Shown piece after piece: positions 7,402-63,879 of a DNA stretch of 64,000 nucleotides (the first letter of the stretch is position 1; every line of letters begins with the position of its first letter). The translations under genes and the position numbers were made by a program. The DNA is from Coleofasciculus sp. B1-GNL1-01 (GTDB taxonomy: Bacteria; Cyanobacteriota; Cyanobacteriia; Cyanobacteriales; Coleofasciculaceae): assembly GCA_040220235.1 (NCBI GenBank), contig JAVJTO010000044.1. One strand, given 5' to 3'. The notes below the pieces were generated by a model. The model ran no database searches. It was not told the origin of the DNA and was given only the letters and a program-made list of their open reading frames with translations.

Positions 7402-7749
7402 TTGAAACAACTCGTTGAATTTTCCCTAGACGATGACTCTACGTTCTTAGTCGAGGTAGATGAACCCGAAACGACGGCGGTTGAACGAGTCGCGTTACCC
7501 TCAGGACGTTTAGCCCTCAAAGCCCAACGTTCCTTTGATCAAGCACTAGATACGATTAAGCCTGTCGCCTCTAAAATTATTTCTAAACTAAACGATCTCA
7601 ACACGCCCGCCGATGAAGTGGAAGTCAAATTTGGACTAAAGTTAACCGCTGATGCAGGGGCAGTCTTTACCTCAGTCGGCGGCGAAGTCAGCTATGAAAT
7701 TACATTGAAGTGGAATCAGTCTCAGTCAAGGAAACGCGATGGCAGATAA
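7402..7749 (+). CDS. Trypsin-co-occurring (Trypco1 / CU044_2847-like) small protein
   Basis: LVEF..DD..FLVEVDE and PADEVEVKFGLKLTADAGAV..S.GGE..YEITLKW pattern; overlaps the downstream trypsin gene. TTG start at 7402 is inferred. Confidence 0.75.
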   Translation: MKQLVEFSLDDDSTFLVEVDEPETTAVERVALPSGRLALKAQRSFDQALDTIKPVASKIISKLNDLNTPADEVEVKFGLKLTADAGAVFTSVGGEVSYEITLKWNQSQSRKRDGR

Positions 7750-8605
7750 CTCCGCTTACCTAAATGCCTTTAAAACCGGGATTATTCGCATATCCCACGC
7801 CAATGGAGTTGTGGTTGGGGCAGGGTTTCTGGTATTTCCTAATTATGTGCTAACCTGCGCCCATCTGGTAGCTCAAGCGCTGACAATTCCCCCAAATACT
7901 CCCGATATGCCAACGGGTTTGATTGATCTAGATTTTCCTTTAATTGCACCGGGAAAGAAAATTAAAGCAAGGGTAGAGTTTTGGCAACCCGTGAATCCTG
8001 CGGTAGCTGGAGAAGATATTGCCGGATTAAAGTTGGAGGATAAATGTCCGCCGGGAGTGCAACCTGTGCGATTGGTTACAGCAGACGATGTTTGGCAACA
8101 TTCAGTACGGGTGTTTGGCTTTCCCAGTGGACATCCTGATGGCGTTTGGGCGACAGGGGTACTGCGCGGGGAATTAGGCAATGGATGGATACAAATGGAA
8201 GCGGTTAATGTCCCCGGTTATCGAGTAGAACCGGGCTTTAGTGGTGCGCCCGTGTGGGATGAAACCTTGTCGGGAGTTGTCGGGATGGCGGTGGCGGCGG
8301 AACGACAACGGGATGGGGTTAAGGCAGCGTTTATGATTCCCACAAAGGTGTTGAGTCAAGCTTGGTCGATGCTCGGTCAATTTGTTCACACGGCAATGAA
8401 ACCTAAACCCGCATTGAGTTTAGTTCAGCAAGCAAAAGCTAGAACTCGACAGAAAACTTTGGAAAGTTTAATAGCTGATTATGAAAATACTTATAATCAA
8501 TTGAATTATACATCAAATGCCGCTGAGCGCAACATGATTAAACGACAGTGTGATGTTCTTGAGCAGGAAATGACCGAAGTCGCCAACGTACTTGATGCAT
8601 TATGA
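7739..8605 (+). CDS. Trypsin-like serine protease with C-terminal helical effector-associated (EAD9-like) domain
   Basis: Catalytic triad motifs LTCAH, DIAGL and GFSGAP. The C-terminal ~60 aa resemble the N-terminus of the next ORF. Confidence 0.85.
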   Translation: MADNSAYLNAFKTGIIRISHANGVVVGAGFLVFPNYVLTCAHLVAQALTIPPNTPDMPTGLIDLDFPLIAPGKKIKARVEFWQPVNPAVAGEDIAGLKLEDKCPPGVQPVRLVTADDVWQHSVRVFGFPSGHPDGVWATGVLRGELGNGWIQMEAVNVPGYRVEPGFSGAPVWDETLSGVVGMAVAAERQRDGVKAAFMIPTKVLSQAWSMLGQFVHTAMKPKPALSLVQQAKARTRQKTLESLIADYENTYNQLNYTSNAAERNMIKRQCDVLEQEMTEVANVLDAL

Positions 8606-8728
8606 ATCATGAATTAAAATTTTCTATTCCCTGTATTTCGACCAGCCTGTTGGTAGAGACGTTGCAGGCAACGTCTCTACAATCTAGGAAAAAATGGTTC
8701 TATAATAATGTCAGATTGGGTATGATCA

Positions 8729-9739
8729 ATGACCAATGCCATAAGCACTAAGAAAAAGATGCTTCAGGCTCGGCTTGACCAATTAATAGTGGATTATGAG
8801 AGTCTATATCAGCAATTAAATTACACCCAAAATCAAGCCGATCGCAATCAGCTTAAGCGACAAGCAGAGGATGTATTTCATGAGATGGAAAGGGTGGAAG
8901 CCCAACTGAATCAATGTCAGTCATCTAATACAACTTACAACGACAATTATAAGAACTGGGAAAACCATTTACCTAAGATTAATTATTCTCAAGCCAGTAA
9001 ACTGTTTAATCGCATTTTTGACCACTTTGGCGAAAAAGGGGGCGCTGTCTTTTTCTTACTCCAGAATTGTCATCCCATGGGTGGAAAGTGGTGCATGGAA
9101 AAGATTAAAACTTCTCTCAAGGATAAAGGGGTGTGGAGTCCCCGTGCGGTCGGCTTTGCCGCCTGGGAACAGCCGAATCCCACAGATTTTATCCAGCGCT
9201 TGGGGGCTAGCTTTAACCTGGAAGATAATACCAGTCCGGTAGAAGTCGCGACTCAACGCCTAATCGATAAAATTTATAACTCTTTGCAAATTGACAGCAC
9301 CGTATTTCTGGAGATTCGACTCTTCTCCCTGGATAGCCAATCTGACTTTTTAGCCTGGTTAATTCCTCAATTCTGGATTCCTTTAATCAGCCGCTTACCA
9401 TTAATTCGCCAAGACCTTCCCTTGGTTAAATTTGTTACCGTTATGGTGGTGGAGACGAAAATTCCTCAAACTTGTCGGTCTCCCGCTCTATTTTGTCAAG
9501 GGGGTAAGTTGAGTAGCAAGAAGATTATTGAACTAAAATTAGGCAACTGGACGGAGAAAGAAATCAGAACTTGGTTATATCGATACTCCGGTTTGGCGAC
9601 GCCTAATATAGGGCGGACGCCAAGGGAAATTGAGCAGATGTCTCGTATGGTTTACCAAGTGAGCCAAGGTAGACCGATTGATGTTTATAGTTACCTTATG
9701 AACGAGTTGACTCGGGCTTTCGGAGTTGGAGGGAATTGA
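8729..9739 (+). CDS. EAD9-like + inactive STAND (iSTAND) domain protein
   Basis: N-terminal helical domain shared with the upstream protease. The rest has an NTPase-like layout with degenerate Walker motifs, and the gene lies directly upstream of a MoxR gene. Confidence 0.65.
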   Translation: MTNAISTKKKMLQARLDQLIVDYESLYQQLNYTQNQADRNQLKRQAEDVFHEMERVEAQLNQCQSSNTTYNDNYKNWENHLPKINYSQASKLFNRIFDHFGEKGGAVFFLLQNCHPMGGKWCMEKIKTSLKDKGVWSPRAVGFAAWEQPNPTDFIQRLGASFNLEDNTSPVEVATQRLIDKIYNSLQIDSTVFLEIRLFSLDSQSDFLAWLIPQFWIPLISRLPLIRQDLPLVKFVTVMVVETKIPQTCRSPALFCQGGKLSSKKIIELKLGNWTEKEIRTWLYRYSGLATPNIGRTPREIEQMSRMVYQVSQGRPIDVYSYLMNELTRAFGVGGN

Positions 9740-9743
9740 TGTC

Positions 9744-10676
9744 ATGAATTCGACCACTGAATATAAGTTTCAAGGGAATCCTAACGCTCGACCGAAATCA
9801 GCTCATCCGGATTCTCCCCAAACCCCTGAACCGTATATTGCCCCGGATGAATTGATTCAGGCGGTAAATTTGGCAATTTATTTGCGGCGACCGTTATTAT
9901 TAGAAGGAGAAGCCGGGTGTGGGAAAACGCGATTGGCTCGTGCGGTAGCCTATGAATTAGGATTACCATTTTATCGTTGGGATGTGCGTTCGACGAGTAA
10001 AGCTCAAGAGGGTCTTTATCACTATGATGCTATTTTACGTTTGCATGATGTCCAGATTCAGCAGTTAGAGACGCTGGACAAGAGTGACCAAAGCCGCAAT
10101 CCCAGTAATCCCAAATACTATCGCAAATTGGGCGCATTGGGGAAAGCGTTTATTCTGAAATCCTGTCCGGCGGTGGTTTTAATTGATGAAATTGATAAGG
10201 CAGATATTGATTTTCCCAATGATTTGCTTGCGGTTTTAGATGAGCCGTGGGAATTTACGATTCCGGAGACAAGGGAAAAAGTTCAGGCTGATTATCCGCC
10301 TATTGTGATGATTACCAGTAATAAGGAAAAGGGGAATTTACCTGCACCGTTTTTACGCCGTTGTTTATATTATTTTGTTGAATTTCCCAGTCAAGAGCGC
10401 TTAAAAGAAATTGTCGCGATTCACTACCAGATGCAGCAAATGACGGCTCCGGCGAGGGAATTAGTGGAGACGGCAACAGAACGATTTATTCAAGTGCGTC
10501 AGGAGGGAGGGTTGTTCAAGCTTCCCGGAACGAGTGAATTTTTAGATTGGTTGAAAGCACTGCAAACCTTTGAAAAGACGCCCTATAAGGCGGAAAAATT
10601 AGCCAAGGAGAAGCGGCTTCCTTATCGGGAATTGTTATTTAAGCTGCGGGCAGATTGGCAAAACTATGCTGTGTAG
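9744..10676 (+). CDS. MoxR family AAA+ ATPase
   Basis: RPLLLEGEAGCGKT (Walker A), VLIDEIDKADIDFPNDLL (Walker B) and ITSNKEKGNLPAPFLRRC. ATG at 9744 follows a GGAGG. Confidence 0.92.
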   Translation: MNSTTEYKFQGNPNARPKSAHPDSPQTPEPYIAPDELIQAVNLAIYLRRPLLLEGEAGCGKTRLARAVAYELGLPFYRWDVRSTSKAQEGLYHYDAILRLHDVQIQQLETLDKSDQSRNPSNPKYYRKLGALGKAFILKSCPAVVLIDEIDKADIDFPNDLLAVLDEPWEFTIPETREKVQADYPPIVMITSNKEKGNLPAPFLRRCLYYFVEFPSQERLKEIVAIHYQMQQMTAPARELVETATERFIQVRQEGGLFKLPGTSEFLDWLKALQTFEKTPYKAEKLAKEKRLPYRELLFKLRADWQNYAV

Positions 10677-10710
10677 GGTCATTTATCTTATGTCATGTAT
10701 ACGCAAAATC

Positions 10711-10983
10711 GTAGGGTGCGTTAGCGTTCGCGCAGCGTTCCCGAAGGGTAGCGTAACGCACCATTTTTCTAAAAACGATAGGTAAAAATCAACCCTGTAG
10801 GGGCGACCCGTTGCATCAATTAACAACACCAATCCACTCAATAGGCTTGGGTCGCCCTCTCTTCTCGCAATGGGTAGCGAGCAAGATGCAAAGCCTGCGG
10901 CATGGCTTCGCTTAACGCACTACAATGAAACGGGTAAACTCACCCCGACAATTGACGACAGACGTGCCATGGTACGTCTCTAC
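10711..10983. repeat. Cluster of four different GTAG-REP elements between moxR and vWA
   Basis: GTAGGGTGCGTTA..TAACGCACC; GTAGGGGCGACCC..GGGTCGCCC; GTAGCGAGC..GCACTAC; AGACGTGCCATGGTACGTCTCTAC. Confidence 0.8.
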
Positions 10984-10988
10984 ATGAT

Positions 10989-12053
10989 GTGAAAAACGAT
11001 ACCATTCAGCCCATCCTATCTCGCCTATTTAACCGCTTACGCCAAAGCGGATTCAACTTGGGTGTGGGTGAATATCGGGCAGCGCTAGAGGCAATTGAAG
11101 GGGGCTATGGGTCAAGTAGCTTAGAAGAACTCGAACGGGTGTTAACATTACTCTGGTGTCATTCCCGCGCCGAACAAAGCCAGTTTCAGTTCATTTGGGA
11201 ATCGGTAATCGCAGACACCTCAACGGTGGAACCGAAACCACCACGCCGCACCTCTAAACCGGAACCCTCACCAGAACCCCAAGATAAACCGCTAGCCGCT
11301 CCCTCACCTCAACCTGTAGAATCCGTGCAACCCCAACCCGCTCTAGAGTTAGCGCCGTTGCCGATTCGCGCTCCCTTTACCCCGGTTGAAACGGAAGATA
11401 CCCCCCAACTACAAACCGATAGACCCATTTCCCGCCGTGCGATGGTGTATAGTTGGCGTTATCTGCGCCGTCCGATTCTAGATGGTCCAGAGGATGTTGT
11501 GGATGAGCGGGCGACAGTGGAAACCGTGGCGCGTCAGGGATTTTTTCTCACCCCGGTTTATCGGCGTCGGGAACGGAATGCGGCTCATTTGCTGTTGTTA
11601 ATCGACCAAGATGGGTCAATGACACCCTTCCATCGCTTTACCCGTGACTTGGTGGAAACGGCGCAATATGAAAGTTCGATTGGGCAAGTGGATGTTAGCT
11701 ATTTTCACAATATTCCGGCAAAAAGCGTCTATCATGACCCCTATTTGACCCAACCTGTCCTGTTGGAGCGGGTGTTAGCCACCTGTGATAATAACACCAG
11801 TGTTTTCATCGTCAGCGATGCAGGGGCGGCGCGGGGATATCGGCGGTTAGAGCGAATTCGAGCCACGACGGAGGTATTATTTCAAATTAAGCAACAGACC
11901 AATCTGATAGCCTGGTTAAATCCCATGCCCCAAGAGCGTTGGGGGAGTACCTCAGCTCAACTCATTGCCCATCTTGTGCCAATGTATCCCATGGATAACG
12001 ATGGATTAAGTCATGCGATCGATATTGTACGCGGACAGCCGTTGTCACCGTAG
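10989..12053 (+). CDS. vWA domain protein (CoxE-like partner of MoxR)
   Basis: LIDQDGSM MIDAS-like motif, SDAGAARG and WLNPMP..RW, with a Pro-rich linker; follows moxR. Confidence 0.85.
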   Translation: MKNDTIQPILSRLFNRLRQSGFNLGVGEYRAALEAIEGGYGSSSLEELERVLTLLWCHSRAEQSQFQFIWESVIADTSTVEPKPPRRTSKPEPSPEPQDKPLAAPSPQPVESVQPQPALELAPLPIRAPFTPVETEDTPQLQTDRPISRRAMVYSWRYLRRPILDGPEDVVDERATVETVARQGFFLTPVYRRRERNAAHLLLLIDQDGSMTPFHRFTRDLVETAQYESSIGQVDVSYFHNIPAKSVYHDPYLTQPVLLERVLATCDNNTSVFIVSDAGAARGYRRLERIRATTEVLFQIKQQTNLIAWLNPMPQERWGSTSAQLIAHLVPMYPMDNDGLSHAIDIVRGQPLSP

Positions 12054-12171
12054 GGGCGCACCGACGTGCGCCCTTTACCGACGTGCGCCCTTTGCTGACG
12101 TGCGCCCTTGTACCCATTACCATGCCGCTATGGTGTGTTACCGTTTGCGAGCCAGTAGGATAAGGAAAACA

Positions 12172-12381
12172 ATGATTAAATCAGGAACGGGTGACTCCTT
12201 GGATTATGACCCAACTAAAGAAAACGTTCACGCAGCAACTGATCCAGATAAATGTAGGGACATGGAACGCAGAAATGGGTGGAGATTAAAGAAAATCAAG
12301 CCAACACGCGATCCGACATTGAAAGTTGATTGCGTATTCTATGGTGAACAAACAACATTTGAAGATGAACGCTATGACTAA
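12172..12381 (+). CDS. Small hypothetical protein (module gene A, copy 1), 69 aa
   Basis: AAGGA RBS before ATG 12172; clearly similar to 59089..59310. Confidence 0.75.
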   Translation: MIKSGTGDSLDYDPTKENVHAATDPDKCRDMERRNGWRLKKIKPTRDPTLKVDCVFYGEQTTFEDERYD

Positions 12382-12760
12382 AGTTAAAGCTGAAACCTGG
12401 ATTGTTTACAAAACCGAGACAATGAGCGCTCCCGGATGGGAAAATCGTCAACTGCTACCAGCCGGATCGATGACCGACATAATCAGCGAAGAATGGGATA
12501 GTTCCGGTCATCTCCCCAAAATAGGCGATCGCATCCGCGAGTATACAAATTTAGACAATCCAGAACAAGGCGGAATTACCCATAGTCGGGATGGAGACTG
12601 GGTTGTCACCACGATTCACCAGTTTTCTTCCCCCGACACTCCTACTCATATTGTTGTTTGTTACTGTTCTTACCAACCCATCACACCTAACTGGGTCAAA
12701 CTCAAGCGCGGGAAACCGGTAAATGACATGCTCGAAACGGTTAGCACTGGGGTTGAGTGA
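12374..12760 (+). CDS. Hypothetical protein (module gene B, copy 1), 128 aa
   Basis: ATG overlaps the gene A stop (ATGACTAA); clearly similar to 58699..59085. Confidence 0.8.
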   Translation: MTKVKAETWIVYKTETMSAPGWENRQLLPAGSMTDIISEEWDSSGHLPKIGDRIREYTNLDNPEQGGITHSRDGDWVVTTIHQFSSPDTPTHIVVCYCSYQPITPNWVKLKRGKPVNDMLETVSTGVE

Positions 12761-12860
12761 ACTATCACAAGAGAGCATGTCAAGGAAAGCAGATAATGTT
12801 TAGGCGTTGGGTGATTCACCTAAGAAGGCTGACGCTGCTTACGTCGCGATCGCGCTATAT

Positions 12861-12990
12861 AGTTGTAGGTTGGGTTGACGCTTGTTACCCAACAGAATCT
12901 AGGGCTAAAGCCCTGACTACGAACGAGTTGTAGGTTGGGTTGACGCTTGTTACCCAACGGAATTTAGGGCTAAAGCCCTGACTACGAACG
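12861..12990. repeat. 2 x 65-bp tandem repeat, each unit containing two oppositely oriented GTAG-REP palindromes (BIME-like)
   Basis: agttgtaggttgggttgacgcttgttacccaac(a/g)gaat(c/t)tagggctaaagccctgactacgaacg occurs at 12861 and 12926 with 2 mismatches. Confidence 0.9.
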
Positions 12991-12993
12991 AAC

Positions 12994-14583
12994 ATGAATA
13001 CCGCCACTGTAGCTAACCGAGATAAGGAAATTGCCAGACAACGGGTGAACCAATTTGTCCGGCGATTTGAGGAATCTTATCGGCTTTTGGCGTATCATGC
13101 GGCACTTCCTTTGGTGCTAACCCCGGAACTGCTCAATTATCTGCGGAATCAATTTCTGCGCGGACAAGTGCCTTGGCTGGCGGAAGTGGATTTGTTGCTG
13201 TCGGATTTGTGTAGTCCGGTGGGGTACGAACTCTATGCTATGGATACCGCCGTTCGTGCCTATTTGCTGGAGGAAATGCATAATGATGCGGCACTCTCCA
13301 GCCAACGGATGCAGGAGGTGGCTCGATTATTATTGGGGTATGTTCGCCATCTGGCACAGACGAATCCGTTTATTAGTAAACAGGAATTAGAGGCGCAACA
13401 GTGGGCGGCAATGGTGTACCTTGATAACCAGCGAGAAAATGCTGTGCGTCAGATTGTGCAAGCGTTTCAAGAGAGTCGGGCAATCGGGGGAAGTCGCTGG
13501 CAAACTGAAATGGCGCGTTTGTCCCGAATTACGCAGGAACTTGCCCCTCAATTAAGGGCTTACCCAAATCTGTTGGAGTATGCTGAGTTAATTACTCGCT
13601 TTGTGGCTGAACCTGAATCAGTGAATCCCGAAGCTGGGACGCATTCCTACTCAGTTCTAGGGGAAAATCTGGACATCCCGGAGGAATGGATTGCTGAAGG
13701 TACGGGTTCATTTCCTCCCTTGCAGGTGTTTGAGTTTGAGGTGGTGACGGTTGATAAACAGGGTAATATCATTGACAAAACTCAGGAGCAAGGGCAATAT
13801 TTTCGGGAAGATTTGGGCAATGGTGTCACCTTGGATATGGTGGCGATTCCAGGAGGGTCATTTCTGATGGGTTCTCCCGATACGGAAGCAGGACACAGAG
13901 ATAGTGAAAGTCCCCAGCATTCGGTAACGGTTCAACCCTTTTTCATGGGGAAATACCCGGTAACTCAGGCACAATGGCAGGCGATTGCTAATCTACCTCA
14001 AGTCGATAAAGAACTTGACCCTGACCCGTCTAATTTTAAAGGATCAGATCGACCCGTTGAGCAAGTATCGTGGTATGATTGTGTAGAGTTTTGTGCGCGG
14101 TTATCGCAGTACACAGGACGAGACTACCGACTTCCTAGTGAAGCCGAGTGGGAATATGCCTGTCGTGCGGGAACAACAACGCCGTTTCATTTTGGTGAAA
14201 CGATTACTACGGATTTAGCCAATTACGACGGCAATTATACTTATGGTGAAGGTCATAAGGGTAAGTATCTTAAAAAGACTACCCCGGTCGGGAGTTTTCA
14301 GGTAGCGAACCCCTTTGGCTTATTTGATCTGCATGGAAATGTGTGGGAATGGTGTGCTGACCATTGGCATGATAGTTATGAAGGTGCGCCGCCGGATGGT
14401 CAAGCTTGGTTATTGGATGAGGATGAGGATGAAAATGATAATCATTCTCGGCTGTTGCGCGGTGGTTCGTGGATCCTCAATCCCAGGTACTGTCGTTGTG
14501 CTAGTCGCGACAGGGATACCCCTGTCATCAGGTTCAACTACTTCGGGTTTCGGGTTGTCTGTGGTGCGGCGTGGACTCCTTAG
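12994..14583 (+). CDS. FGE-sulfatase/SUMF1 (CLec-fold) domain protein; probable DGR target
   Basis: [39 protein letters not shown] and RGGSW...GFRVVC motifs; N-terminal HAALPLVLTPELL domain of the kind found after vWA genes. Confidence 0.92.
   Translation: MNTATVANRDKEIARQRVNQFVRRFEESYRLLAYHAALPLVLTPELLNYLRNQFLRGQVPWLAEVDLLLSDLCSPVGYELYAMDTAVRAYLLEEMHNDAALSSQRMQEVARLLLGYVRHLAQTNPFISKQELEAQQWAAMVYLDNQRENAVRQIVQAFQESRAIGGSRWQTEMARLSRITQELAPQLRAYPNLLEYAELITRFVAEPESVNPEAGTHSYSVLGENLDIPEEWIAEGTGSFPPLQVFEFEVVTVDKQGNIIDKTQEQGQYFREDLGNGVTLDMVAIPGGSFLMGSPDTEAGHRDSESPQHSVTVQPFFMGKYPVTQAQWQAIANLPQVDKELDPDPSNFKGSDRPVEQVSWYDCVEFCARLSQYTGRDYRLPSEAEWEYACRAGTTTPFHFGETITTDLANYDGNYTYGEGHKGKYLKKTTPVGSFQVANPFGLFDLHGNVWEWCADHWHDSYEGAPPDGQAWLLDEDEDENDNHSRLLRGGSWILNPRYCRCASRDRDTPVIRFNYFGFRVVCGAAWTP
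14452..14570 (+). other. Putative DGR variable region (VR)
   Basis: Codons between GGSW and GFRV (ATC CTC AAT, TAC, AGT, GAC, GAT ACC, GTC ATC, TTC AAC TAC TTC) end in C/T and are derivable from AAC/AAT by changes at A positions. Confidence 0.75.
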
Positions 14584-14664: not shown

Positions 14665-14739
14665 GAGATTTATACGCAAGGGTGGCAATAATCGTCTGCC
14701 AGAATACCTCCTGTAACTTTTTAATGTACGATTGAGTCT

Positions 14740-14875
14740 GTGAGCGATTTACCGATTATCCAGAAAACCTACGATTTAATTCGCTGGTACATCCCGATTC
14801 TTAACCGCCTGCCGCGAAATCATAAATTTCTGTTAGGTACTCGGGTCATTAGCAGATTGTATGATCTCTTAGACA
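14740..14875 (+). pseudogene. avd: Truncated DGR accessory variability determinant Avd
   Basis: [44 protein letters not shown] matches the N-terminus of cyanobacterial Avd. Similarity stops after ~45 aa and runs into repeat DNA. Confidence 0.8.
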
Positions 14876-14940
14876 GACCGAGCATAAATTATAGCACGGT
14901 AATTTGTAAGGGTATGGCAATGCTGTACCCCTACCATTGG

Positions 14941-15156
14941 TAATACCAAACCGCCTTTGATATCATGTCCGGTCAAACACCCCTAATAAAAACGCCTGAA
15001 ACCCCTGTTATTGCAGCATTGCAATTATGGGCAATCGTTAGGACATGATATGAAACCCCCTTTTTGCCTTGGCGACTGGAAGTCGCAGCTACACAAGCAA
15101 AGTCCGCCTGCGCGGACTAGATTATAAAGGGGGCGGCTAACCCGGATTTGGTATTA
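14941..15156. mobile_element. MITE-like element with a nested second MITE (14961..15050)
   Basis: Outer ends TAATACCAAA...TTTGGTATTA; inner ends TATCATGTCC...GGACATGATA; a related inverted copy starts at 17905. Confidence 0.6.
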
Positions 15157-15435
15157 GATATCGGGGTATTTTCTCGCGTTATGAAGAACACGGAGGATAT
15201 GTACCTGATTGTTTTTAACTCGGTAGACCACAAAATAGGGTGTCTTTGAGATAACCAACTCCCTTGTCCCTTCAACGCGCCCGGTTCTTCCCATATATGG
15301 GAATTTTGCTAACTGCTCAACCGCTGCTTGTATTTTTAAAACAGTATTTGTTGCAGCGTCTGGGTTATCTTCGCAAATGTAGGCATGAAGCTGCTCAAGG
15401 TTGCGTAGTGCTTTGCGTAACCATCTAACTTTCAT
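15154..15435 (-). CDS. RelE/ParE family toxin
   Basis: MKVRWLRKALRNL...FPYMGRTGRVEGTRELVI...YRVK..VHILRVLH; overlaps its antitoxin. Confidence 0.9.
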   Translation of the reverse strand: MKVRWLRKALRNLEQLHAYICEDNPDAATNTVLKIQAAVEQLAKFPYMGRTGRVEGTRELVISKTPYFVVYRVKNNQVHILRVLHNARKYPDI

Positions 15436-15667
15436 GGGTCAACCGAGCAAAGACGGCGGTTACCTCGTCTTCACTGGCAAAATCCCCAGCATCAGCTTCA
15501 GCGATACCCTGCTGAATCTCTTTGAGTTGCCACTGATGCATTTCCAGGTAAGTATTAATTGCCTGATTCAATACGTAGGTTAAATTACGATCCATACCAG
15601 CAGCAATAGCATCCAGTGCAGCTCTTTTATCAGGATCAAGTCGAAAGGTTACATTTTCCTTGCTCAT
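15425..15667 (-). CDS. CopG/RHH antitoxin
   Basis: MSKENVTFRLD...LDAIAAGMDRNLTYVLNQAI...IQQGIAEADAGDFAS. The real start is ATG 15667, inside the longer track ORF. Confidence 0.85.
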   Translation of the reverse strand: MSKENVTFRLDPDKRAALDAIAAGMDRNLTYVLNQAINTYLEMHQWQLKEIQQGIAEADAGDFASEDEVTAVFARLTHES

Positions 15668-15716
15668 CAGACAGGTCCTTCGTTGAGGGTTGGTTGAAAT
15701 GCAGCGGCACTCTTTT

Positions 15717-15745
15717 ATCATGCACTGTATTGCATTGCATTGCAA
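15717..15745 (-). promoter_or_regulatory. Putative TA promoter (TTGCAA-17-CATGAT) overlapped by TGCA repeats (possible RHH operator)
   Basis: The - strand reads TTGCAAtgcaatgcaatacagtgCATGAT, ~50 nt upstream of the antitoxin ATG. Confidence 0.5.
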
Positions 15746-15883
15746 GAAGAACGTTACCTGACTGGATTCGGGTACGAACCGAACACCTGCGCCGCGCCAG
15801 ACGTCGCATCCGCTTACAAAGGGACTGCAATCAGGGTAACTTGAGAGGGCGCAGGTCCTTGCGCCCCTACCCAAGATACGATG

Positions 15884-16366
15884 TCACTCTTGAACGGTAG
15901 AAGTCACCGCATCCGCATCAAAAACTACCTCGAACTGTGCATCAGGTATCCACTTTGCCAGAAAGCGCTGGTGATTTTGGGCTTCTGTGCGACTGTAGAA
16001 GCGAGCAACCGTATAATGTTGAGCATTCGGCAAAAGCCTCACCAGTGTCCAAGGATAATACTGTTGACTCCAAAAGCTGTGGTTAGACTTGGGTGATGGT
16101 TCGGCTGTGCGCCCACATCCCCGATGCTCCAAAATAGAACGAATCATCGCTAAAAGTCGCTCTCGCTGTGGCGTTCCATCATTGGGTAACAAACTCCACT
16201 CGTTGATTGGTGTGGGTAGCCAAGTCAAGCGATAGGTCATCGAATCTTTGCGAATATGCCAAGACAGGCGGCGTGGCTGTTTGCGACAGTTGAACCCATC
16301 GGCGCGAAAAGACGCAACAATCCTGTCGCCTTCAGCTTGCAGGCGAAGCCATTGAGAATGTTTCAT
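15884..16366 (-). CDS. Hypothetical protein (C-terminal PWxxVRLLPN..VARF..R.EA..H..FL..FEVVFD domain)
   Basis: Start at MKHSQW is inferred. The C-terminal motif resembles small cyanobacterial proteins I recall from mobile regions, divergent from XRE genes. Confidence 0.6.
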   Translation of the reverse strand: MKHSQWLRLQAEGDRIVASFRADGFNCRKQPRRLSWHIRKDSMTYRLTWLPTPINEWSLLPNDGTPQRERLLAMIRSILEHRGCGRTAEPSPKSNHSFWSQQYYPWTLVRLLPNAQHYTVARFYSRTEAQNHQRFLAKWIPDAQFEVVFDADAVTSTVQE

Positions 16367-16435
16367 TGTTATGATGATTGTGATTGTTTTTTGAGAAAGG
16401 GCGATCAGGCACAAAACATAAGCGATCGCCCCTTA

Positions 16436-16614
16436 TCTATGGAAGGCTTTCTCAAAACTTACACACGAGGCGATTGAAATCGCAGCTACACATAACATAA
16501 GTTTGTATAGCTCCATGATGGAACATGAGAGCAACGTGCTTCGTGTGAGAAACTACACCATAGAGAGACAGGGAAACAAGAAGTATCGGGACTTCTAATA
16601 GCGTTTCCCCCGTC
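16436..16614 (-). ncRNA. Candidate structured RNA / 5' leader (copy 1)
   Basis: Nested hairpin 16567..16614 shows compensatory changes relative to copy 2. A second long-range pairing is possible between 16541-16563 and 16437-16468. Confidence 0.45.
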
Positions 16615-16628
16615 AGTTTTTTGCTGTT

Positions 16629-16649: not shown

Positions 16650-16656
16650 GCTAAGT

Positions 16657-17043: not shown

Positions 17044-17092
17044 CTTTTTGTTTTGTTGTCCAATTAGGACAAGTTGTCCTTTGCTGATTAAA

Positions 17093-55868: not shown

Positions 55869-58538
55869 TTAAAGCCAATTGCCGATGAGGATAAACGGTG
55901 CCCAGTAGGCGGGGTGGGCATATTGGTCATTAATTTCTTCTGTGTCCTTCGCCTCAATCAGTTTTCGCTGAGCTGCACGTAAAGCCTCGGCTTTGCTCAC
56001 GCCGGGACGGCGCAAGTTGGCATAAAACTCTGTCACCAACTCGGCTGTGGAGGCATCATTGACAAACCAAAGGGAAGCTAAGGCACTGCTGACACCGGCT
56101 TGCACGGCAATGCCAGCTAAACCCAGAGCAGCTCGGTCATCTCCGACTGCTGTTTGACAAGCTGTGAGGGCAAGCAAGTCGCCGGAGTCGGGTTTACGAC
56201 TAACGCGGCTGATGATGTTTTCTAGATCATTGAGGGTGAGTTTGTCGTTATTGCCAGTGACGAGAAAGGTGTCCTCTCGAATCGCACTAAACTGACCGTG
56301 GGTGGCGATGTGAAGAATTGGGTAAACGGTTTGACTCAGTTCTTTTTCCATGCTCTCTTGGATAAAATCCTCATTCAAGAGTGTTTTGCTACCGGGAAAT
56401 TGAGTCTCGATTTCCTTGAGTTCAGTTTTAACATTGGTCAACGCTGAAAACGTTTGCCCATTGACTTCACTTTCTTGGGTTAAACCTAAGGCTAAAACGC
56501 GAAGGTTTTGACGGTTCAAAGCTTGCGGATTGGTCAGGTTAAGACTGGGGGTTGTGGCAATGGCATAGTTTTCCACCAAGAATTTCTCACCGTCGTGAAG
56601 GGCAGCCATTGGGATGCTGCGTAAGATGCCATCCTGGATGAAAACGAGAGTGTCTATCGGTGCTGAGTTTAAATCATTGGCAAAAGGGGCAATAATCCTG
56701 TTGTACAGCTCCTGGGCTGGTTTTGGGTTATAGATAATGTCACGTCTGCGCTCTAGTCCCCGGCGAAATTGGTTAATGTCTTCCCGAAGCTTCTGACTAT
56801 CAACGTCGATCCACTTCAGCCGCTTTTCACCGTTGGGAAGACTGACCAGAATCGCGGTGCGATCGCTTAAAATAATCGAGCTAAAGACAGCGGTGTTTTC
56901 CCCAACCAGTTCGTCAACCCGTTCCTGACTGATGAGTGTTAAGGCACAATCATTCCCGAAGTAATTTTGCAGTTCTGCGAGTTTTAGGGAATCAATGGTT
57001 TCGAGGGCAGAGTCTAGTTCCTTTTTATAATCTTGACTATCTCTTGGTTTCAAAACAGCACGCTCTAACCTTAACTGAGCCAACTCCCGGTGGAGAGGAT
57101 TAATCGCATCCCGAAAGTCAAACTGTAAGTCTCGCTCGGCAATCAGAAGCTCATTTCGGATATCGTTGAGTGTCGCGATCGCTTGTTCATAAGCTTTGAG
57201 AGCCTCAGTTTCATTCCCTTGGGCGTTGAAGATGCGTCCTGCCTGCCACTCCCACAAATACAGACTATCTTTAGCCGATTGATTGTTGTCCGCCACCCAC
57301 TGTGCCTTGCGAGTGAATTCTTGGGCGTTCTTATAGTCTTGGCGGCATTCATAGAGATGACCCAATTCACCCAAGGCAAATGACTCGGAACGGGAGTCCT
57401 GAAGACGTTGAGCAATTGAGACGGCTTGATTGAGGAGTTCTTCTGCCTGTCCTTCTAGCAGACGCTTACCGCAGGGACTAACTGGGGTCATTGGCTGCTC
57501 CAGTTTAGCTAATTCGATGGCGGCATAGACTTTATCTTGAGAATCCGGTAGCTGCTTGAGTAAGTCCTGAGCTTGTTTGAGGGTTGTTGCTGCGTTGTTT
57601 GCGGCGTTGGGTAAGGTTGATTCTTTCGGGCGGTAATAAAGTTTAATTAAATTGCGTAACACCCGCATTTGAGCAAATTGGTCGTTTTGAGCAAGTTGGA
57701 GACTCTGTTGAAAATGGGTTTGAGCTTGCTGGTAATATTCAATCGCCTCTTGTCGAAATTCTGATGCCTTAGTGTTAGCACCGCGTTGCTGGGCGGAGTT
57801 GGCATAACCCTCTGTGAGTTGAGCTTGAGCCATGTAGACGTTGCCTATATTGTTTAGAGTAGAAGCGGCAGAGGCTGGGTGATTAAGCTCTTGGGCAATT
57901 TTTAAGCTCCTGTTTAAATGGGCGATCGCTTGGTCGTAATCCCCTCTGAGGCGATAGGCTTCTCCTAGACTCCCGTGGGCGGCTATTTCTCCGTCTCGAT
58001 CGTGATGCGCTTGGGCAATTTGCACAGCACTGCCTTCAGGGCAACTCTCCTGTTGGCGAGAATCAGGGACGCCACATAAAAGCGCGATCGCTTTTCTGGC
58101 TTGTCCAAAGCGGCTGTAGGCTTGAGCCAGTTCGGTTTTCGTTCGCCCTATTTGCTGCCAGTCACCTAGTTTTTGATAGTCAGCCATGGCTTGTTGCCAA
58201 TAGCTGATTGCCTGCTCAATGTGACCGATTTTTTGATAGGTTCTTGCTAGGTTTTCCCGGATAATGGCGGCGTTGGCGCGATTATTGGTCCTTTGGTAGA
58301 GTTCTAAGGCGTTTTGCCAGGGTTCAATCGCCCCTTGATAATCTCCTGTCCGGTAGGACTCAACCCCTTGTTGCACGAGTTGACTGGCATTGCCAGATTG
58401 GGTTGTTGCTACATTTCCCGGTGCAGCCGGTTGAGCAATGGAGGGAAGATGACCGAGCCATAGGGAAAGGGTAAGGCTACTGAGAAAGAGAAATCCTAAA
58501 AGGCGATGGACGCTGGTTTGATGATGTTGACTGGGCAT
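55869..58538 (-). CDS. TPR + CHAT (caspase-like) domain protein
   Basis: TPR repeats, HIATHGQF and LTACQTA (His-Cys dyad), LASLW.V.D and HPAYWAPFILIGNWL. Confidence 0.93.
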   Translation of the reverse strand: MPSQHHQTSVHRLLGFLFLSSLTLSLWLGHLPSIAQPAAPGNVATTQSGNASQLVQQGVESYRTGDYQGAIEPWQNALELYQRTNNRANAAIIRENLARTYQKIGHIEQAISYWQQAMADYQKLGDWQQIGRTKTELAQAYSRFGQARKAIALLCGVPDSRQQESCPEGSAVQIAQAHHDRDGEIAAHGSLGEAYRLRGDYDQAIAHLNRSLKIAQELNHPASAASTLNNIGNVYMAQAQLTEGYANSAQQRGANTKASEFRQEAIEYYQQAQTHFQQSLQLAQNDQFAQMRVLRNLIKLYYRPKESTLPNAANNAATTLKQAQDLLKQLPDSQDKVYAAIELAKLEQPMTPVSPCGKRLLEGQAEELLNQAVSIAQRLQDSRSESFALGELGHLYECRQDYKNAQEFTRKAQWVADNNQSAKDSLYLWEWQAGRIFNAQGNETEALKAYEQAIATLNDIRNELLIAERDLQFDFRDAINPLHRELAQLRLERAVLKPRDSQDYKKELDSALETIDSLKLAELQNYFGNDCALTLISQERVDELVGENTAVFSSIILSDRTAILVSLPNGEKRLKWIDVDSQKLREDINQFRRGLERRRDIIYNPKPAQELYNRIIAPFANDLNSAPIDTLVFIQDGILRSIPMAALHDGEKFLVENYAIATTPSLNLTNPQALNRQNLRVLALGLTQESEVNGQTFSALTNVKTELKEIETQFPGSKTLLNEDFIQESMEKELSQTVYPILHIATHGQFSAIREDTFLVTGNNDKLTLNDLENIISRVSRKPDSGDLLALTACQTAVGDDRAALGLAGIAVQAGVSSALASLWFVNDASTAELVTEFYANLRRPGVSKAEALRAAQRKLIEAKDTEEINDQYAHPAYWAPFILIGNWL

Positions 58539-58558
58539 TTAATAGAACCCTCCAGTGC

Positions 58559-58654
58559 TACAGCACTTTCTAACACGGTGTAGTACAGTAACGATGAGAC
58601 AGTGCTTTTCTACTCTTGGAAATGGTGTATCACATTGAGTCTGAAAACGCTGTA
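58559..58654. mobile_element. Short MITE-like element
   Basis: Imperfect terminal inverted repeats TACAGCACTTTC...GAAAACGCTGTA. Confidence 0.45.
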
Positions 58655-58698
58655 AATACCTGGACACAAATCTTGCACTGATTTGTCGTGTGGCTGTA

Positions 58699-59085
58699 TC
58701 AACCTTTTGCGTCTTGCAACTGCTGCGGAACCCGAATTTCTGGTAAGGGTTCTAGGGGGGTGGAGACGGGGGAGTATTGGCAGTAGCAGATGACAATAGA
58801 GTCAAAATCAACGCCAGGGATTTTTGATTCATACTCCTCAACCCGGATTACTTGCCAATCTCCCACTCGGCTGTGGGTGCTAGCAGCCAAGAAATGTTCT
58901 TTGGCAAATTTTTCAATCCGATGGTACTCTCTAAGTCTGTAACCTGGGGTAGGAGAGGACTGACCAGAAGAGTCAAAGTGTTCGGCAAGAATATCGGTGA
59001 TTGCGCCTGTATGTGCCAGTATCCTGTTTTCGGCTCCCTGCTCCTCACTCCAGTCTGCACGAAAGATGATGTACTTTCTACCCAT
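58699..59085 (-). CDS. Hypothetical protein (module gene B, copy 2), 128 aa
   Basis: Homologous to 12374..12760; GGAGGA RBS within the end of gene A. Confidence 0.8.
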   Translation of the reverse strand: MGRKYIIFRADWSEEQGAENRILAHTGAITDILAEHFDSSGQSSPTPGYRLREYHRIEKFAKEHFLAASTHSRVGDWQVIRVEEYESKIPGVDFDSIVICYCQYSPVSTPLEPLPEIRVPQQLQDAKG

Positions 59086-59088
59086 TGA

Positions 59089-59310
59089 TTAGTCCTCCAT
59101 CATGTAATTCGGAAATTCGGTTTGACCCTCAAACACACAATTGTATTTCAGGGTTTTGTCTCCAGTTGGCTCTATTCGCAGCAATGTCCACCTGTATTTC
59201 TCCTCCATTTCGTAGCACCGCTTGCGTTCGGCTACAGCGTGACGAGATTCGGGCTGTTCGTTGCGATTGGTTGGGTTACCAGCCGAAGGGCGATCGCTTG
59301 AATCCGTCAT
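59089..59310 (-). CDS. Small hypothetical protein (module gene A, copy 2), 73 aa
   Basis: Homologous to 12172..12381; start at MTDSSD is inferred. Confidence 0.75.
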   Translation of the reverse strand: MTDSSDRPSAGNPTNRNEQPESRHAVAERKRCYEMEEKYRWTLLRIEPTGDKTLKYNCVFEGQTEFPNYMMED

Positions 59311-59481
59311 GATGTGATTCTCGTTTCCCGAAATATGACCTGAAACTATGCTTATGTACCTGCTGGTCAGTATAATTGTACAATTATTCACCTGACTCCT
59401 CCTGTTTTTATTTTCGGAAAATTTTGATGGCATGAATTGCCGTGAGCGCTCAAGTGAGCTGTCCCAAAGGAGATAAAGCCC

Positions 59482-62400
59482 ATGATGACTCAACTTATGT
59501 ACCGTGGATGCTGGATGTTAGGGCTAGCCAGTGGTTTAACCCTAAGTGGGACAATCACTCTCATGGGGTTGTTCGCCAGTGCTTTTTGGGGAAAATGTGC
59601 TGTTGCTCAGATTACACCAGATACAAGTTTAGGGGCTGAGAGTTCTCGTGTCACGCCTGATGCTGAGGTGAAAGGGAAGCCAGCGGATTTGATTGAGGGG
59701 GGAGCAGCGCGAGGTGTCAATCTGTTTCACAGCTTTACTGAGTTCAATGTTGAGGAGTTACAACGGGTTTATTTTGCCAATCCAGCAGGGATTGAGACTA
59801 TTCTGTCGCGGGTAACTGGGGCAAATCCCTCGAATATTTTGGGAACCTTGGGAGTTGATGGTGCTGCCAATCTATTTTTACTCAATCCCCATGGGATTTT
59901 GTTTGGGTCGAATGCTCAACTGGATGTTGAGGGTTCGTTTGTGGCAACTACTGCTCATTCTATAGGGTTTGAGGATGGCTCATCGTTTAGTGCAGCAAAT
60001 CCAGAGGACTCATCGTTGTTAACGGTGAGTGTACCTTTGGGGTTGCAGTATGGGGCGAATCAAAGTGGAGAGATTGCCAATGCTGGAAATTTGGCAGTAG
60101 GGCAGGATTTGACGCTCTCGGCTGGAAATTTGGATTTACAGGGTCAACTCTATGCTGGGGGAGATTTGACCCTGGAAGCGCAAGATACGGTGCGGATCAG
60201 GGATAGCGTGGATGCACCTTTTATGGCAGCAGCGAGAGGACAGTTGTGGGTGCAGGGGAATCAAGGGGTGGATATTTTTGCCCTCAATCATCCCGATAGT
60301 GGGTTGTTTTCTGGTGGGAATATGGTGCTGCGAAGTGCGGCTCAAGTGGGGGGAGATGCTCACTATTGGAGTGGGGGCAGTTTTCGCATAGAGCGGTTGG
60401 ATGGGAGTTTGGGGGATTTGGAGAGTCTCAATGACCCGGTGATTCGGACGATGGGAGATGTGTTGATTGGTGCTTACCAGGGAAGTTCTCTGCATATTGT
60501 AGCTGGGGGTAAGGTGGAGATTCCTGGCTTTGTCTTTATTACTGGGGCAGACCCCACCAATGGTTTACAGGAAACTGTTACCTTATCGGATGGCACGACT
60601 ATAAATATTGACGGTAGAAGCGAACCGACGTTGGATATTCGGGCGGGAGTAGACCCAAGTGCGATCGGAGTTCCATTTTTCTCTGGAACTGGTAATGATT
60701 TTTTCTTCCCTCCTTTAGATTTTCCGAATACCCCAACCAGTGCAGACATCACTATCGGCGATATCTTGGTCTTTGACCTCACCGATGGGGGCAAAGTTTT
60801 GTTGACGAATCAGTATCAGCCGAACTTAGCACTAGACACCCCCAACGGTATTACTGTTGGCTCGATTGACGCAAGAGATATTTTTGGCGGGGGTTCTGTC
60901 TTTATTGATTCTCGCAGCAGTATTACTCTTAATGGCACAGTTAGTGCCTCTGCCTTTGAGCTTTCTGATACTTACTTTGGCGATGGTGGCGATGTCAGGC
61001 TAAAGGCTGAGGGTGATATTACTCTCAATCGGGGGGCTAATGTCTTTTCCAGTGGTTTATTGGGAGGGAATATCACCTTCAACAGCGAGGGGGACATTTC
61101 TATTGCAGAAAGTGTGGGGACCGCGAGCTTTACCAATGTAGCGGGTGTTACAGGGGGTGAGATTCAGGTGACGGCTAAGTCCCTCTTCTTGACCGAGGGG
61201 GCGACACTAGGTACCCTTACCTTTGGGGCTGGGAATGCGGGTGTGGTGAAGATTACCACGACTAATTCAGTGCGCTTGGATGGGCAATCGAGCGATGGAT
61301 CTGCCAGTGGTGTCTTCAGTCAGGTGCTTCCTGGAGCTGAGGGGAACTCGGAAGGGATTGAGCTGACCACTGCCTCCTTGGAACTAACTAATGGCGCTCA
61401 AGTGAGTGCTTCTACCTTCGGGGTTGGGGATGCGGGTGCAGTTAAAATTACCGCTACCGATTCGGTGCGCTTGGATGGGGAATCGAGTGATGGAATTATC
61501 AGCAGTGGTATATTCAGTCAGGTGGCTCCTGGAGCTGAGGGGAACTCTGGGGGGATTGAGCTGACAACTGTCTCCTTGGAACTGACTAATGGTGCTCGAG
61601 TGAGTGCCTCTACTCTTGGGGTTGGGGATGCGGGTGCAGTTAAAATTACCGCCACTGATTCGGTACGCTTGGATGGGGAAAAAAGCAATGGATTTTCCAG
61701 TCGTGTAGTCAGCCAGGTAACTTCTGGAGCTGAGGGGAATTCTGGGGGAATTGAACTAACAACTGCCTCCTTAGAACTGACCAATGGCGCTCAAGTGAGT
61801 GCTTCTACCTTCGGGGTTGGGGATGCGGGTGTAGTTAAAATTACCGCCACTGATTCAGTGCGCTTGGATGGGGAACCAAGCGATGGAATTCCCAGTGGTG
61901 TATTCAGTCAGGTGGTTTCGGGAGCCGAGGGGAACTCTGGGGGAATTGAGCTGACAACTGCCTCCTTGGAACTGACCAATGGTGCTCAAGTGAATGCCTC
62001 TACTGGCGGAGTTGGAGATGCGGGTGCGGTGAAGATTACCGCTACCGATTCGGTGCGCTTGGATGGGCAAGACAGCGATGGATTTACCAGTAATATATCC
62101 AACCAGGTGATTCCTGGAGCTGAGGGGAACTCTGGGGGAATTGAACTAACAACTGCCTCCTTGGAACTGACTAATGGTGCTCAAATGAGTGCTTCTACCT
62201 TCGGGGTTGGGGATGCGGGTGCGGTGAAGATTACCGCTACCGATTCGGTGCACTTGGATGGGGAATCAAGCGATGGATTTCCCAGTAATATATCCAACCA
62301 GGTGGCTCCTGGAGCTGAGGGGAACTCTGGGGGAATTGAACTAACAACTGCCTCCTTGGAACTGACTAATGGTGCTCAAATGAGTGCTTCTACTCTTGGG

Positions 62401-63879
62401 GTTGGGGATGCGGGTGCAGTTAAAATTACCGCTACCGATTCGGTGCGCTTGGATGGGGAAGACAGCGATGGATTTTCCAGTCGTGTATCTAGTACGGTGG
62501 AGCCGGGAGCTGAGGGGAATTCGGAGGGGATTGAACTAACAACTGCCTCCTTAGAACTGACCAATGGTGCTGGAGTGGCTGCCTCTACCTTCGGGTTGGG
62601 GAATGCGGGTGCAGTTAAAATTACCGCCACTGATTCCGTCCGATTGGATGGAGAATCAAGCGATGGAATTCCCAGTGGTGTATTTAGTACAGTGGAGCCG
62701 GGAGCTAAGGGGAATTCGGAGGGGATTGAACTAACAACTGCCTCCCTGGAACTCACCAATGGCGCTGTAGTGGATGCCTCTACCGATGGGGTTGGGAATG
62801 CGGGTGCGGTGAAAATTACCGCCACTGATTCGGTGCGGCTGGATGGGGAATCGAGCGATGGAATTATCAGCAGTGGTGTCTTCAGCGCGGTGGCTCCTGG
62901 AGCTGAGGGGAATTCAAAAGGGATTGAGCTAACAACCCCTTCCCTAGAACTGACCAATGGTGCTCAAGTGAATGCCAGTACCTTTGGAGGAGGAAATGCT
63001 GGTGATATCTCGGTGCGAGATGCTCAATCGGTCTTCCTAGACAACAATAGCTCTATTTCCACGGCGGTCAACCCTGATGCCAAAGGCATTGGTGGCGATA
63101 TTGATATCCAAACCGACTCCCTTTCCCTGGAAAATAATTCCCAGATATCGGCTCAGAGTCAAGGACAAAGCAGAGCTGGCAACATTACCCTCAAAGTCTC
63201 AGACACCTTAACCGCGACTGACAGCGATATTATTACCGCCACCACGCAATCTGCTGGAGGCGCTATCGACATCACAGCTCAAGACATTCGTCTGCGCGGT
63301 GACAGTGACATCACTACCAGTGTCTTCAGTGGTGCCGACAATGGTGGTAATATCACCATCACCACCGACTCCCTGATTGCCTTCGCTGACAGCGACATCC
63401 TCGCCTTTGCCCGTGATGGTCGAGGCGGCGATATTACCTTCAAGACCCCTGTTTTCTTCGGCTTTGCCTTCCGTCCAGCCCCCAAAGGCACCGACCCAGC
63501 TACTTTAGATAATAATAATCGAGTTGATATCAATGCCAGTGGAGCAGTCGATGGAGTCATCACCTTACCCAACCTTGACTTTATCCAAAACAGCCTGACT
63601 GAGTTACCCGAAAATCTAATTGATACCGACAATCTGCTTGCCAATAGCTGCATTGTCCGAAGCGATGAACAAGAGGGAACATTCATCATAACGGGTGCTG
63701 GGAACTTACCCACCCGTCCTGGTGACGCTTCAGCCTTACCTTATCCCACTGGAGAGGTACGCGCTGTACCGAGTGAGAGTTCCTCTCGTCCTTGGCAGAA
63801 GGGGGACCCAATTGTAGAACCAACTGGGGTGTATCAACTGCCAAATGGACAGTTAGTGATGGCGCGGGAGTGTTCGTGA
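59482..63879 (+). CDS. Filamentous haemagglutinin / TpsA-like exoprotein
   Basis: AQITPD, NLFHSF.EF, NLFLLNPHGILFG secretion domain; beta-helix repeats; cyanobacterial C-terminus (SC...F..TG.G.LP..P; IVEPTG.Y..PNGQLV). Confidence 0.92.
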   Translation: MMTQLMYRGCWMLGLASGLTLSGTITLMGLFASAFWGKCAVAQITPDTSLGAESSRVTPDAEVKGKPADLIEGGAARGVNLFHSFTEFNVEELQRVYFANPAGIETILSRVTGANPSNILGTLGVDGAANLFLLNPHGILFGSNAQLDVEGSFVATTAHSIGFEDGSSFSAANPEDSSLLTVSVPLGLQYGANQSGEIANAGNLAVGQDLTLSAGNLDLQGQLYAGGDLTLEAQDTVRIRDSVDAPFMAAARGQLWVQGNQGVDIFALNHPDSGLFSGGNMVLRSAAQVGGDAHYWSGGSFRIERLDGSLGDLESLNDPVIRTMGDVLIGAYQGSSLHIVAGGKVEIPGFVFITGADPTNGLQETVTLSDGTTINIDGRSEPTLDIRAGVDPSAIGVPFFSGTGNDFFFPPLDFPNTPTSADITIGDILVFDLTDGGKVLLTNQYQPNLALDTPNGITVGSIDARDIFGGGSVFIDSRSSITLNGTVSASAFELSDTYFGDGGDVRLKAEGDITLNRGANVFSSGLLGGNITFNSEGDISIAESVGTASFTNVAGVTGGEIQVTAKSLFLTEGATLGTLTFGAGNAGVVKITTTNSVRLDGQSSDGSASGVFSQVLPGAEGNSEGIELTTASLELTNGAQVSASTFGVGDAGAVKITATDSVRLDGESSDGIISSGIFSQVAPGAEGNSGGIELTTVSLELTNGARVSASTLGVGDAGAVKITATDSVRLDGEKSNGFSSRVVSQVTSGAEGNSGGIELTTASLELTNGAQVSASTFGVGDAGVVKITATDSVRLDGEPSDGIPSGVFSQVVSGAEGNSGGIELTTASLELTNGAQVNASTGGVGDAGAVKITATDSVRLDGQDSDGFTSNISNQVIPGAEGNSGGIELTTASLELTNGAQMSASTFGVGDAGAVKITATDSVHLDGESSDGFPSNISNQVAPGAEGNSGGIELTTASLELTNGAQMSASTLGVGDAGAVKITATDSVRLDGEDSDGFSSRVSSTVEPGAEGNSEGIELTTASLELTNGAGVAASTFGLGNAGAVKITATDSVRLDGESSDGIPSGVFSTVEPGAKGNSEGIELTTASLELTNGAVVDASTDGVGNAGAVKITATDSVRLDGESSDGIISSGVFSAVAPGAEGNSKGIELTTPSLELTNGAQVNASTFGGGNAGDISVRDAQSVFLDNNSSISTAVNPDAKGIGGDIDIQTDSLSLENNSQISAQSQGQSRAGNITLKVSDTLTATDSDIITATTQSAGGAIDITAQDIRLRGDSDITTSVFSGADNGGNITITTDSLIAFADSDILAFARDGRGGDITFKTPVFFGFAFRPAPKGTDPATLDNNNRVDINASGAVDGVITLPNLDFIQNSLTELPENLIDTDNLLANSCIVRSDEQEGTFIITGAGNLPTRPGDASALPYPTGEVRAVPSESSSRPWQKGDPIVEPTGVYQLPNGQLVMARECS
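61220..63000 (+). repeat. ~9 intragenic tandem repeats of 195-198 bp (65-66 aa)
   Basis: The GA(E/K)GNS unit recurs at 61333, 61531, 61726, 61921, 62116, 62311, 62506, 62701 and 62899. Confidence 0.95.

Follow-up and report, generated by a model that had tools for sequence, protein, structure and literature searches.

A ~50-residue domain common to export-type proteins and free-standing two-gene cassettes of cyanobacteria: a putative toxin and its candidate immunity partner

HicAB and HigBA are toxin-first type II toxin–antitoxin modules and omega-epsilon-zeta is a three-component system; to our knowledge, the toxins of classical toxin–antitoxin systems are not fused to export signals. Polymorphic toxins, as presented by Zhang et al. 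(2012; PMC3482391), combine an N-terminal export part, including Sec-type export, with a C-terminal domain and a downstream partner, and also occur as stand-alone cassettes. Orphan Rhs toxin–immunity modules are described as acting as type II toxin–antitoxin systems (Starsta et al., 2020; PMC7043789), and SitA/SitI of myxobacteria as a polymorphic lipoprotein toxin with a cognate immunity gene (Vassallo et al., 2017; PMC5562445), whilst a survey of toxin families, by its own account, found very few new polymorphic toxin families in cyanobacteria (10.1101/2021.10.19.465003). Here we compare with these systems a pair of adjacent genes, A and B, present twice in a 64,000-nt stretch (the window) of the genome of Coleofasciculus sp. 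B1-GNL1-01, as follows.

Gene A1: 12172..12381, + strand, 69 aa, free-standing putative toxin domain
Gene B1: 12374..12760, + strand, 128 aa, putative cytoplasmic immunity protein, mostly beta, without a signal peptide
Gene A2: 59089..59310, - strand, 73 aa, second free-standing A, of another subtype than A1
Gene B2: 58699..59085, - strand, 128 aa, cognate partner of A2

As the initial annotation had proposed, the two pairs are homologous, coupled and in the same gene order, with open reading frames at these positions, and the A and B motifs that it cited were found in the sequences. The stop codon of A1 lies inside B1 (an 8-nt overlap), A2 and B2 are separated by 3 nt, and both the A and the B proteins share 36.5% identity, over 63 aa (E 1.6e-7) and 104 aa (E 1.9e-14) respectively (tblastn against the 8.7-Mb genome). 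Values of dN/dS from 21 non-overlapping pairs of loci were 0.18 for A and 0.15 for B, i.e. purifying selection, so that both are real coding genes. Conserved positions in A are His20, Cys28, Trp37, Cys54, Phe56 and Phe63; its structural model has a strand-helix-strand-strand core (mean pLDDT 75.5, core 86–91) with one cysteine in the helix and the other in the last strand. The model of B (pLDDT 89.5) is mostly beta, and B proteins are acidic (median net charge -7.5) with no signal. Elsewhere the source genome holds a third B with no A beside it (G000:C44:42210-42581), and a 59-aa A-like gene without either cysteine, coupled to a 105-aa gene whose product had no match to the B or C profiles (G000:C96:43244-43741).

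The initial annotation recognised no family for A or B, and profile and sequence searches agreed. Pfam assigned no family to the four window proteins or to 140 B and 51 A sequences, with scattered weak matches, and PHROGs (140 B sequences), NCBIfam, PADLOC and PDB sequences likewise gave nothing beyond scattered weak matches; none of the Pfam Ntox, Tox or Imm models matched A or B. A HicA-like RNase (dsRBD-like fold with a catalytic His) had no Pfam match in the 51 A sequences and was absent among the 50 structural matches listed for A. Foldseek of B against the PDB gave no match at E<=0.001 and its fold search gave weak matches to phage proteins of 60–100 aa, A had none at E<=0.001 in BFVD, and no fold match of A or B to any toxin or immunity protein appeared in the searches run. 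As the best Z values were 5.3 for B (VIA-align, a streptokinase domain, rmsd 3.0, 67 residues aligned) and 4.0 for A, neither a known nor a new fold is shown. Literature searches using PCC 7120 accessions, two presumed locus tags, and terms for cyanobacterial toxin–antitoxin systems and toxins returned no description of the family. By these searches, A and B are an undescribed pair of families.

Of 201 genomes from the order 41 carry B, as do 47 of 401 from the phylum, at up to nine matches per genome; B is also present on four Nostocales plasmids and in 180 clusters at 50% identity for which taxa are not given. The family is patchy, multi-copy and found only in cyanobacteria, phyla beyond these having been covered by plasmid, phage and motif scans; the ESM Atlas held only unnamed clusters, of which those with a recorded phylum were mostly Cyanobacteriota, and neither 50,697 phage records nor, by one pattern, IMG/VR yielded B. 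For neighbourhood analysis we used 80 genomic B loci from the order and phylum genome scans and four plasmid loci, 84 in all; A lay upstream of B in 64, plus one later find (L098). A coupled two-gene operon that is patchy, multi-copy and plasmid-borne is what is expected of a type II toxin–antitoxin system, and like HicAB and HigBA the pair has a small upstream gene coupled to a downstream partner, whilst some loci resemble omega-epsilon-zeta in having an RHH/HTH third gene. Unlike in all three systems, A and B had no profile match and B has no DNA-binding domain. Plasmid alpha of Nostoc PCC 7120 carries an A-B pair (WP_010999845.1 and WP_010999846.1), which is adjoined by seven annotated ORFs of 43–44 aa, possibly a repeat array, between two bacteriocin transporter genes (L031:15233-18170).

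Relatives of A with export-type N-termini occur elsewhere in the cyanobacteria. A word-index search for longer A proteins returned only two N-terminal over-calls, and the true long forms were traced from weak genome matches. The first was a 162-aa protein with a signal-peptide-like start, a Gly-rich hydrophobic segment and the A domain at its C-terminus; a B homologue (E 3e-14) comes next. Database relatives of this protein number 27; a profile of these 27 long proteins matched the free-standing A profile (probability 96.8, E 3e-10), and the long-form profile recovered A1 (E 2.9e-4). A long-form locus on plasmid pNOS7524.01 (WP_015116116.1 and WP_015116117.1) is one example. The long forms are of about 120–190 aa, and across 20 of them identity was 68% in the hydrophobic segment and 24% in the C-terminal domain, nearly all C-termini keeping the two cysteines; they may be one fold. 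Cyanobacteria accounted for 19 of the 20 GTDB loci, and a coupled downstream gene followed in 17 of these 19, one being broken and one at a contig edge; two of the 17 partners are clear B homologues and 15 are tentative, two partner clades resembling B weakly (hhalign probability 4 and 12). At the twentieth locus, a Kribbella RHS protein has the motif CAGTAG.GC, common to it and the cyanobacterial long forms, just before a papain-fold toxin domain that is followed by Imm35, and three IMG/VR contigs hold long forms whose partners belong to other families.

A broader profile matched 75 of 401 class genomes at E<=0.01, some of the weakest matches probably by chance, and 20 of its weaker matches were fetched, chosen mostly for long open frames. 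Sixteen of these had a hydrophobic N-terminal segment and three were free-standing; a clear lipobox was present in five by pattern and three by eye, and two looked like membrane anchors, signal peptides and lipoboxes otherwise being read by pattern. Twelve of the 20 scored above 15 bits on a profile of free-standing A only, where shuffled sequences reached 6.9 at most; of the partners, 11 exceeded 10 bits on the B profile, against a maximum of 3.9 after shuffling. A partner gene lay directly downstream in 19, the remaining one being at a contig end. In profile comparisons, ten of them, from a second clade mostly of lipoprotein type, matched A (98.2%, E 4.5e-14), and their partners matched B (97.2%, E 3.3e-11). 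In the source genome the form with signal and hydrophobic segment was not detected, nor were lipoprotein forms by the A profiles, the sole route able to show them. Longer B homologues of 150–230 aa, apparently with two tandem B-like domains (P0038, L162, L239-L255), are typical as partners of the lipoprotein clade. Distant free-standing A-like genes are followed by an unrelated 80-aa protein or by further families; at L159-L168 an RHH gene, a distant A-like gene and the 80-aa partner, the latter two without a Pfam match, lie beside primase-helicase or integrase genes.

The layout of these relatives is that of the polymorphic toxin systems as set out by Zhang et al. (2012; PMC3482391): relatives of A carry an N-terminal trafficking module, the window copies being the stand-alone form, a signal-less cognate gene lies directly downstream, and stand-alone cassettes and orphan immunity genes both occur. 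Compared with the systems presented there, the A C-termini seem to be one diverging small fold with varying N-termini and partners, and the stand-alone form is the commonest in the A family. Like the orphan Rhs modules described by Starsta et al. (2020; PMC7043789), the window cassettes would be a toxin–immunity pair without a delivery part, expressed inside the cell; unlike those modules as described, they have no RHS remnant, are unrelated in sequence and are scattered, with no full-length gene adjoining and no long form detected. The lipoprotein-plus-partner loci L239, L243-L245 and L248-L251 can be likened to SitA/SitI, as portrayed by Vassallo et al. (2017; PMC5562445), by layout only, and the window copies differ in having no lipobox.

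From these comparisons we consider it fairly probable that A is a ~50-residue toxin and B its cytoplasmic immunity protein, the window copies being signal-less, toxin-first toxin–antitoxin modules. Export-type ends, a signal-less cognate partner and one-sided loss of A (below) together fit a toxin with its immunity protein, and the polarity follows from the exported forms, as an antitoxin would not be exported. B would bind A and neutralise it in the cytoplasm. Elsewhere in cyanobacteria the A domain would arm the C-terminus of exported proteins whose N-termini are interchangeable (a Sec-type signal plus Gly-rich hydrophobic segment, a lipoprotein signal or a membrane anchor), each forming with its coupled immunity gene a small polymorphic-toxin system against neighbouring cells. 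The window copies would come from a lineage without the export part, A having its own start codon and thus presumably being made in the cytoplasm with B, and such cassettes may act as toxin-first type II toxin–antitoxin modules, spread by horizontal transfer, that protect against sibling toxins. The suggestion in the initial annotation of a toxin–antitoxin, immunity or defence pair is supported as regards toxin/immunity character and not supported as regards its tie to conflict-type loci.

A and B diverged together (Mantel rho 0.705 over 45 pairs, 0 of 2000 permutations), and the nearest neighbour of B was within the top three for A in 31 of 45; this is as for cognate pairs, and also follows from simple co-transfer. 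An intramolecular disulfide between the two cysteines, formed during export, is plausible for exported A. A metal site or an A-B disulfide, as first suggested, is not supported: the CxC motif of B is absent in the tentative distant partners, and one A-like gene has no cysteines. Exported tips are neutral to basic and B is acidic, which is consistent with charge-based neutralisation, if weak evidence for it. Nuclease tips are typically far larger than the A domain. Free-standing A and the ten aligned lipoprotein-clade sequences retain His20, and since not every clade does, and little beyond the two cysteines is common to the distant C-terminal domains, no catalytic signature is shown and the target of A is a guess: that A binds and blocks an essential cytoplasmic protein or the ribosome is our leading guess, held at a little under an even chance, a His-dependent RNase is possible and somewhat more doubtful, and any other activity is unlikely.

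Export-type N-termini, cognate partners and adjacent regulators could also be the marks of signalling or kin recognition, with A a non-toxic exported ligand or tag and B its cytoplasmic receptor or adaptor, the pair controlling the adjoining HTH/RHH regulator of a mobile element and an orphan B listening silently. The lack of a catalytic signature in A and the location of several pairs on plasmids or prophage-like contigs are also in keeping with this. We nevertheless regard it as improbable: purifying selection acts even on the commonest form of A, which lacks an export signal; no DNA-binding or other output domain is recognised in B; and A-like genes are followed by several partner families that seem unrelated, as is usual for immunity genes.

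Of similarly low probability is an anti-phage or entry-exclusion role, in which anchored A blocks or senses phage or plasmid in the producer and is restrained by B, the free-standing pair acting in abortive infection; this would fit a toxic A, though not its delivery to other cells. The hydrophobic segment, with the aromatic and basic residues that follow it, could be a single membrane anchor, and may instead hold A in the producer's own membrane, and pairs or their relatives occur on plasmids, on integrase- or primase-bearing elements and on the three IMG/VR contigs, often behind a repressor-like gene. Against this, there was no PADLOC match and no enrichment beside the conflict genes tested, an A of lipoprotein type would sit outside the cytoplasm, unconnected with the B of its own cell, and a motif is common to the long forms and the RHS toxin.

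A toxic A restrained by cytoplasmic B would also account for the way in which the pair decays. In 401 genomes, 72 of 74 full-length A matches had B just downstream, bearing out the linkage that the initial annotation had proposed, whereas 56 of 75 full-length B matches had a full A and 19 did not, 21 weaker A matches and 33 weaker or broken B matches having been set aside before counting. Of the two exceptions for A, one has a divergent B and the other is a decayed A, such that no intact A without B was found among the 74. Where B was broken (two cases), A was truncated or had lost Cys54, and a third B flagged as broken proved intact. Among 21 candidate orphan-B loci that were inspected, one had an A frame and the others showed at least 12 distinct lesions, mostly deletions ending 1–57 nt before the B start and often keeping the purine-rich ribosome site of B; 15 of the 19 orphan B genes come from one genus and so are not independent. 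The third B of the source genome is among those with deletion lesions (L158, G000:C44:42210-42581, 31 nt behind lysS); at this site a relative (G136) has a full A-B cassette, with the deletion junction in a shared purine-rich stretch. Since all 19 orphan-B genomes hold a full A elsewhere, B may need A in trans. This last point, a small first gene with a larger second, and a same-strand RHH/HTH gene immediately upstream at 12 of the 84 loci (no window copy among them) would suit the canonical order, with B the toxin and A an antitoxin whose copies elsewhere neutralise orphan B. Such an order is highly unlikely given that no intact orphan A was found, that A was repeatedly deleted with the ribosome site of B kept, that in one genome (G141) a 128-aa B frame occurs with no A match, and that a cytoplasmic toxin would be beyond the reach of an antitoxin with fused export signals. 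The test first put forward, with B toxic and A rescuing, had this polarity; the loss pattern and the exported forms reverse it and point to A as the toxin.

Both window copies are insertions, for which empty sites exist in genomes of the same genus (G153 for copy 1 and G098 for copy 2), and together with the plasmid copies these support the initial view of the pair as mobile. The features of the two sites and their host loci are as follows.

12050..12109, no strand: repeat array, presumably REP-like, at the left edge of the copy-1 insert; its first unit has 74 exact occurrences in the genome
12865..12989, no strand: tandem pair of hairpin-type repeat units bounding the copy-1 insert on the right
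58665..59374, no strand: extent of the copy-2 insert, about 710 bp, from comparison with G098
58561..58652, no strand: 92-bp dispersed element with TA on both sides, MITE-like, absent in G098
7739..14583, + strand: host locus of copy 1 (context), with trypsin-EAD9, EAD9-iSTAND, MoxR-type AAA, vWA and FGE-sulfatase-domain genes
55869..63879, no strand: host locus of copy 2 (context), with a TPR-CHAT gene and a TPS-domain gene

Between its vWA and FGE-domain genes G153 has a spacer of short repeats only, with one unit related to the hairpin repeats directly after the left array, and in G533 the cassette is present at 98% identity. Copy 1 was first described as splitting the vWA gene from a DGR-target gene; it does lie between both and interrupts neither, the two genes being likewise separate in the relative without the insert and the cassette sitting in a repeat-filled spacer. 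In G098 about 85 bp of unrelated DNA replaces the 710 bp. Neither target duplication nor shared terminal repeats were seen at the two empty sites, so that insertion-sequence-like movement is not supported. The MITE-like element lies outside the cassette and has copies in the source and related genomes. After the FGE-domain gene lies a truncated frame at 14725-14943 (+), recognised by eye and presumably Avd-like, and no reverse transcriptase was recognised near that gene, such that any DGR there looks decayed; a partial, internally deleted duplicate of the FGE-domain gene 4.5 kb further on (19024-19379, +) is 93% identical, with differences not confined to adenine positions. Between these, 15154-18953 holds a cluster of small toxin–antitoxin-like and XRE-like genes, read by eye as RelE/ParE-like frames and two similar HTH genes.

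Neighbours of the pair vary and include the 3' ends of housekeeping genes (leuS by Pfam and, identified from their sequence, ATP synthase gamma, pnp, lysS and prfC), small toxin–antitoxin-type genes, integrases and ParA, and intergenic hot spots are common to A-B, Uma2-type, XisH/I, PIN, MazF and DUF4160/DUF2442 genes. The site behind the ATP synthase gamma gene is a hot spot in one genus (L041-L050), holding, by strain, A-B, B alone, DUF4160/DUF2442, Uma2-type genes or tandem XRE genes. The domains of a vWA-MoxR ternary system (cf. PMC7159879) are present in the host locus of copy 1. One or more of seven conflict-type neighbours from the window were found at 11 of 84 loci, compared with 15% of random sites taken from one genome, the source genome, which makes the conflict-locus setting of the window copies incidental and leaves the tie to such loci that the initial annotation had drawn unsupported. 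That A and B serve vWA-MoxR or CHAT/TPS conflict loci, whether as accessory subunits or as a metal-binding heterodimer, recalls the setting of both window copies and the conserved Cys and His of A and B but is scarcely credible and largely refuted by the neighbourhood count, as such loci occur without the pair in same-genus genomes, vWA (0), MoxR (1) and iSTAND (0) homologues across the 84 loci give no conserved ternary association, a conflict-type gene lies within 1.5 kb at 2 of 84 against 5.3% of the same background, and the Cys pair of B is not kept in tentative distant partners.

If A is a toxin and B its immunity protein, they would represent a new toxin family and a new immunity family, and a candidate killing or kin-discrimination system for filamentous and mat-forming cyanobacteria. 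The hypothesis is directly testable, the genes being of 200–500 bp and a pair being present in Nostoc PCC 7120. A wider picture is conceivable, which we put at rather less than an even chance: one disulfide-stabilised domain of ~50 residues that is secreted, lipidated or anchored, finds an as yet undescribed way into sister cells, and is neutralised by several unrelated immunity families, with signal-less copies domesticated as toxin–antitoxin cassettes and with orphan immunity genes that, behind housekeeping genes, would record selection for protection. What is notable in A-B is that one tiny domain is common to exported and intracellular forms, and it would then be a domain moving between an exported weapon and an intracellular toxin–antitoxin module.
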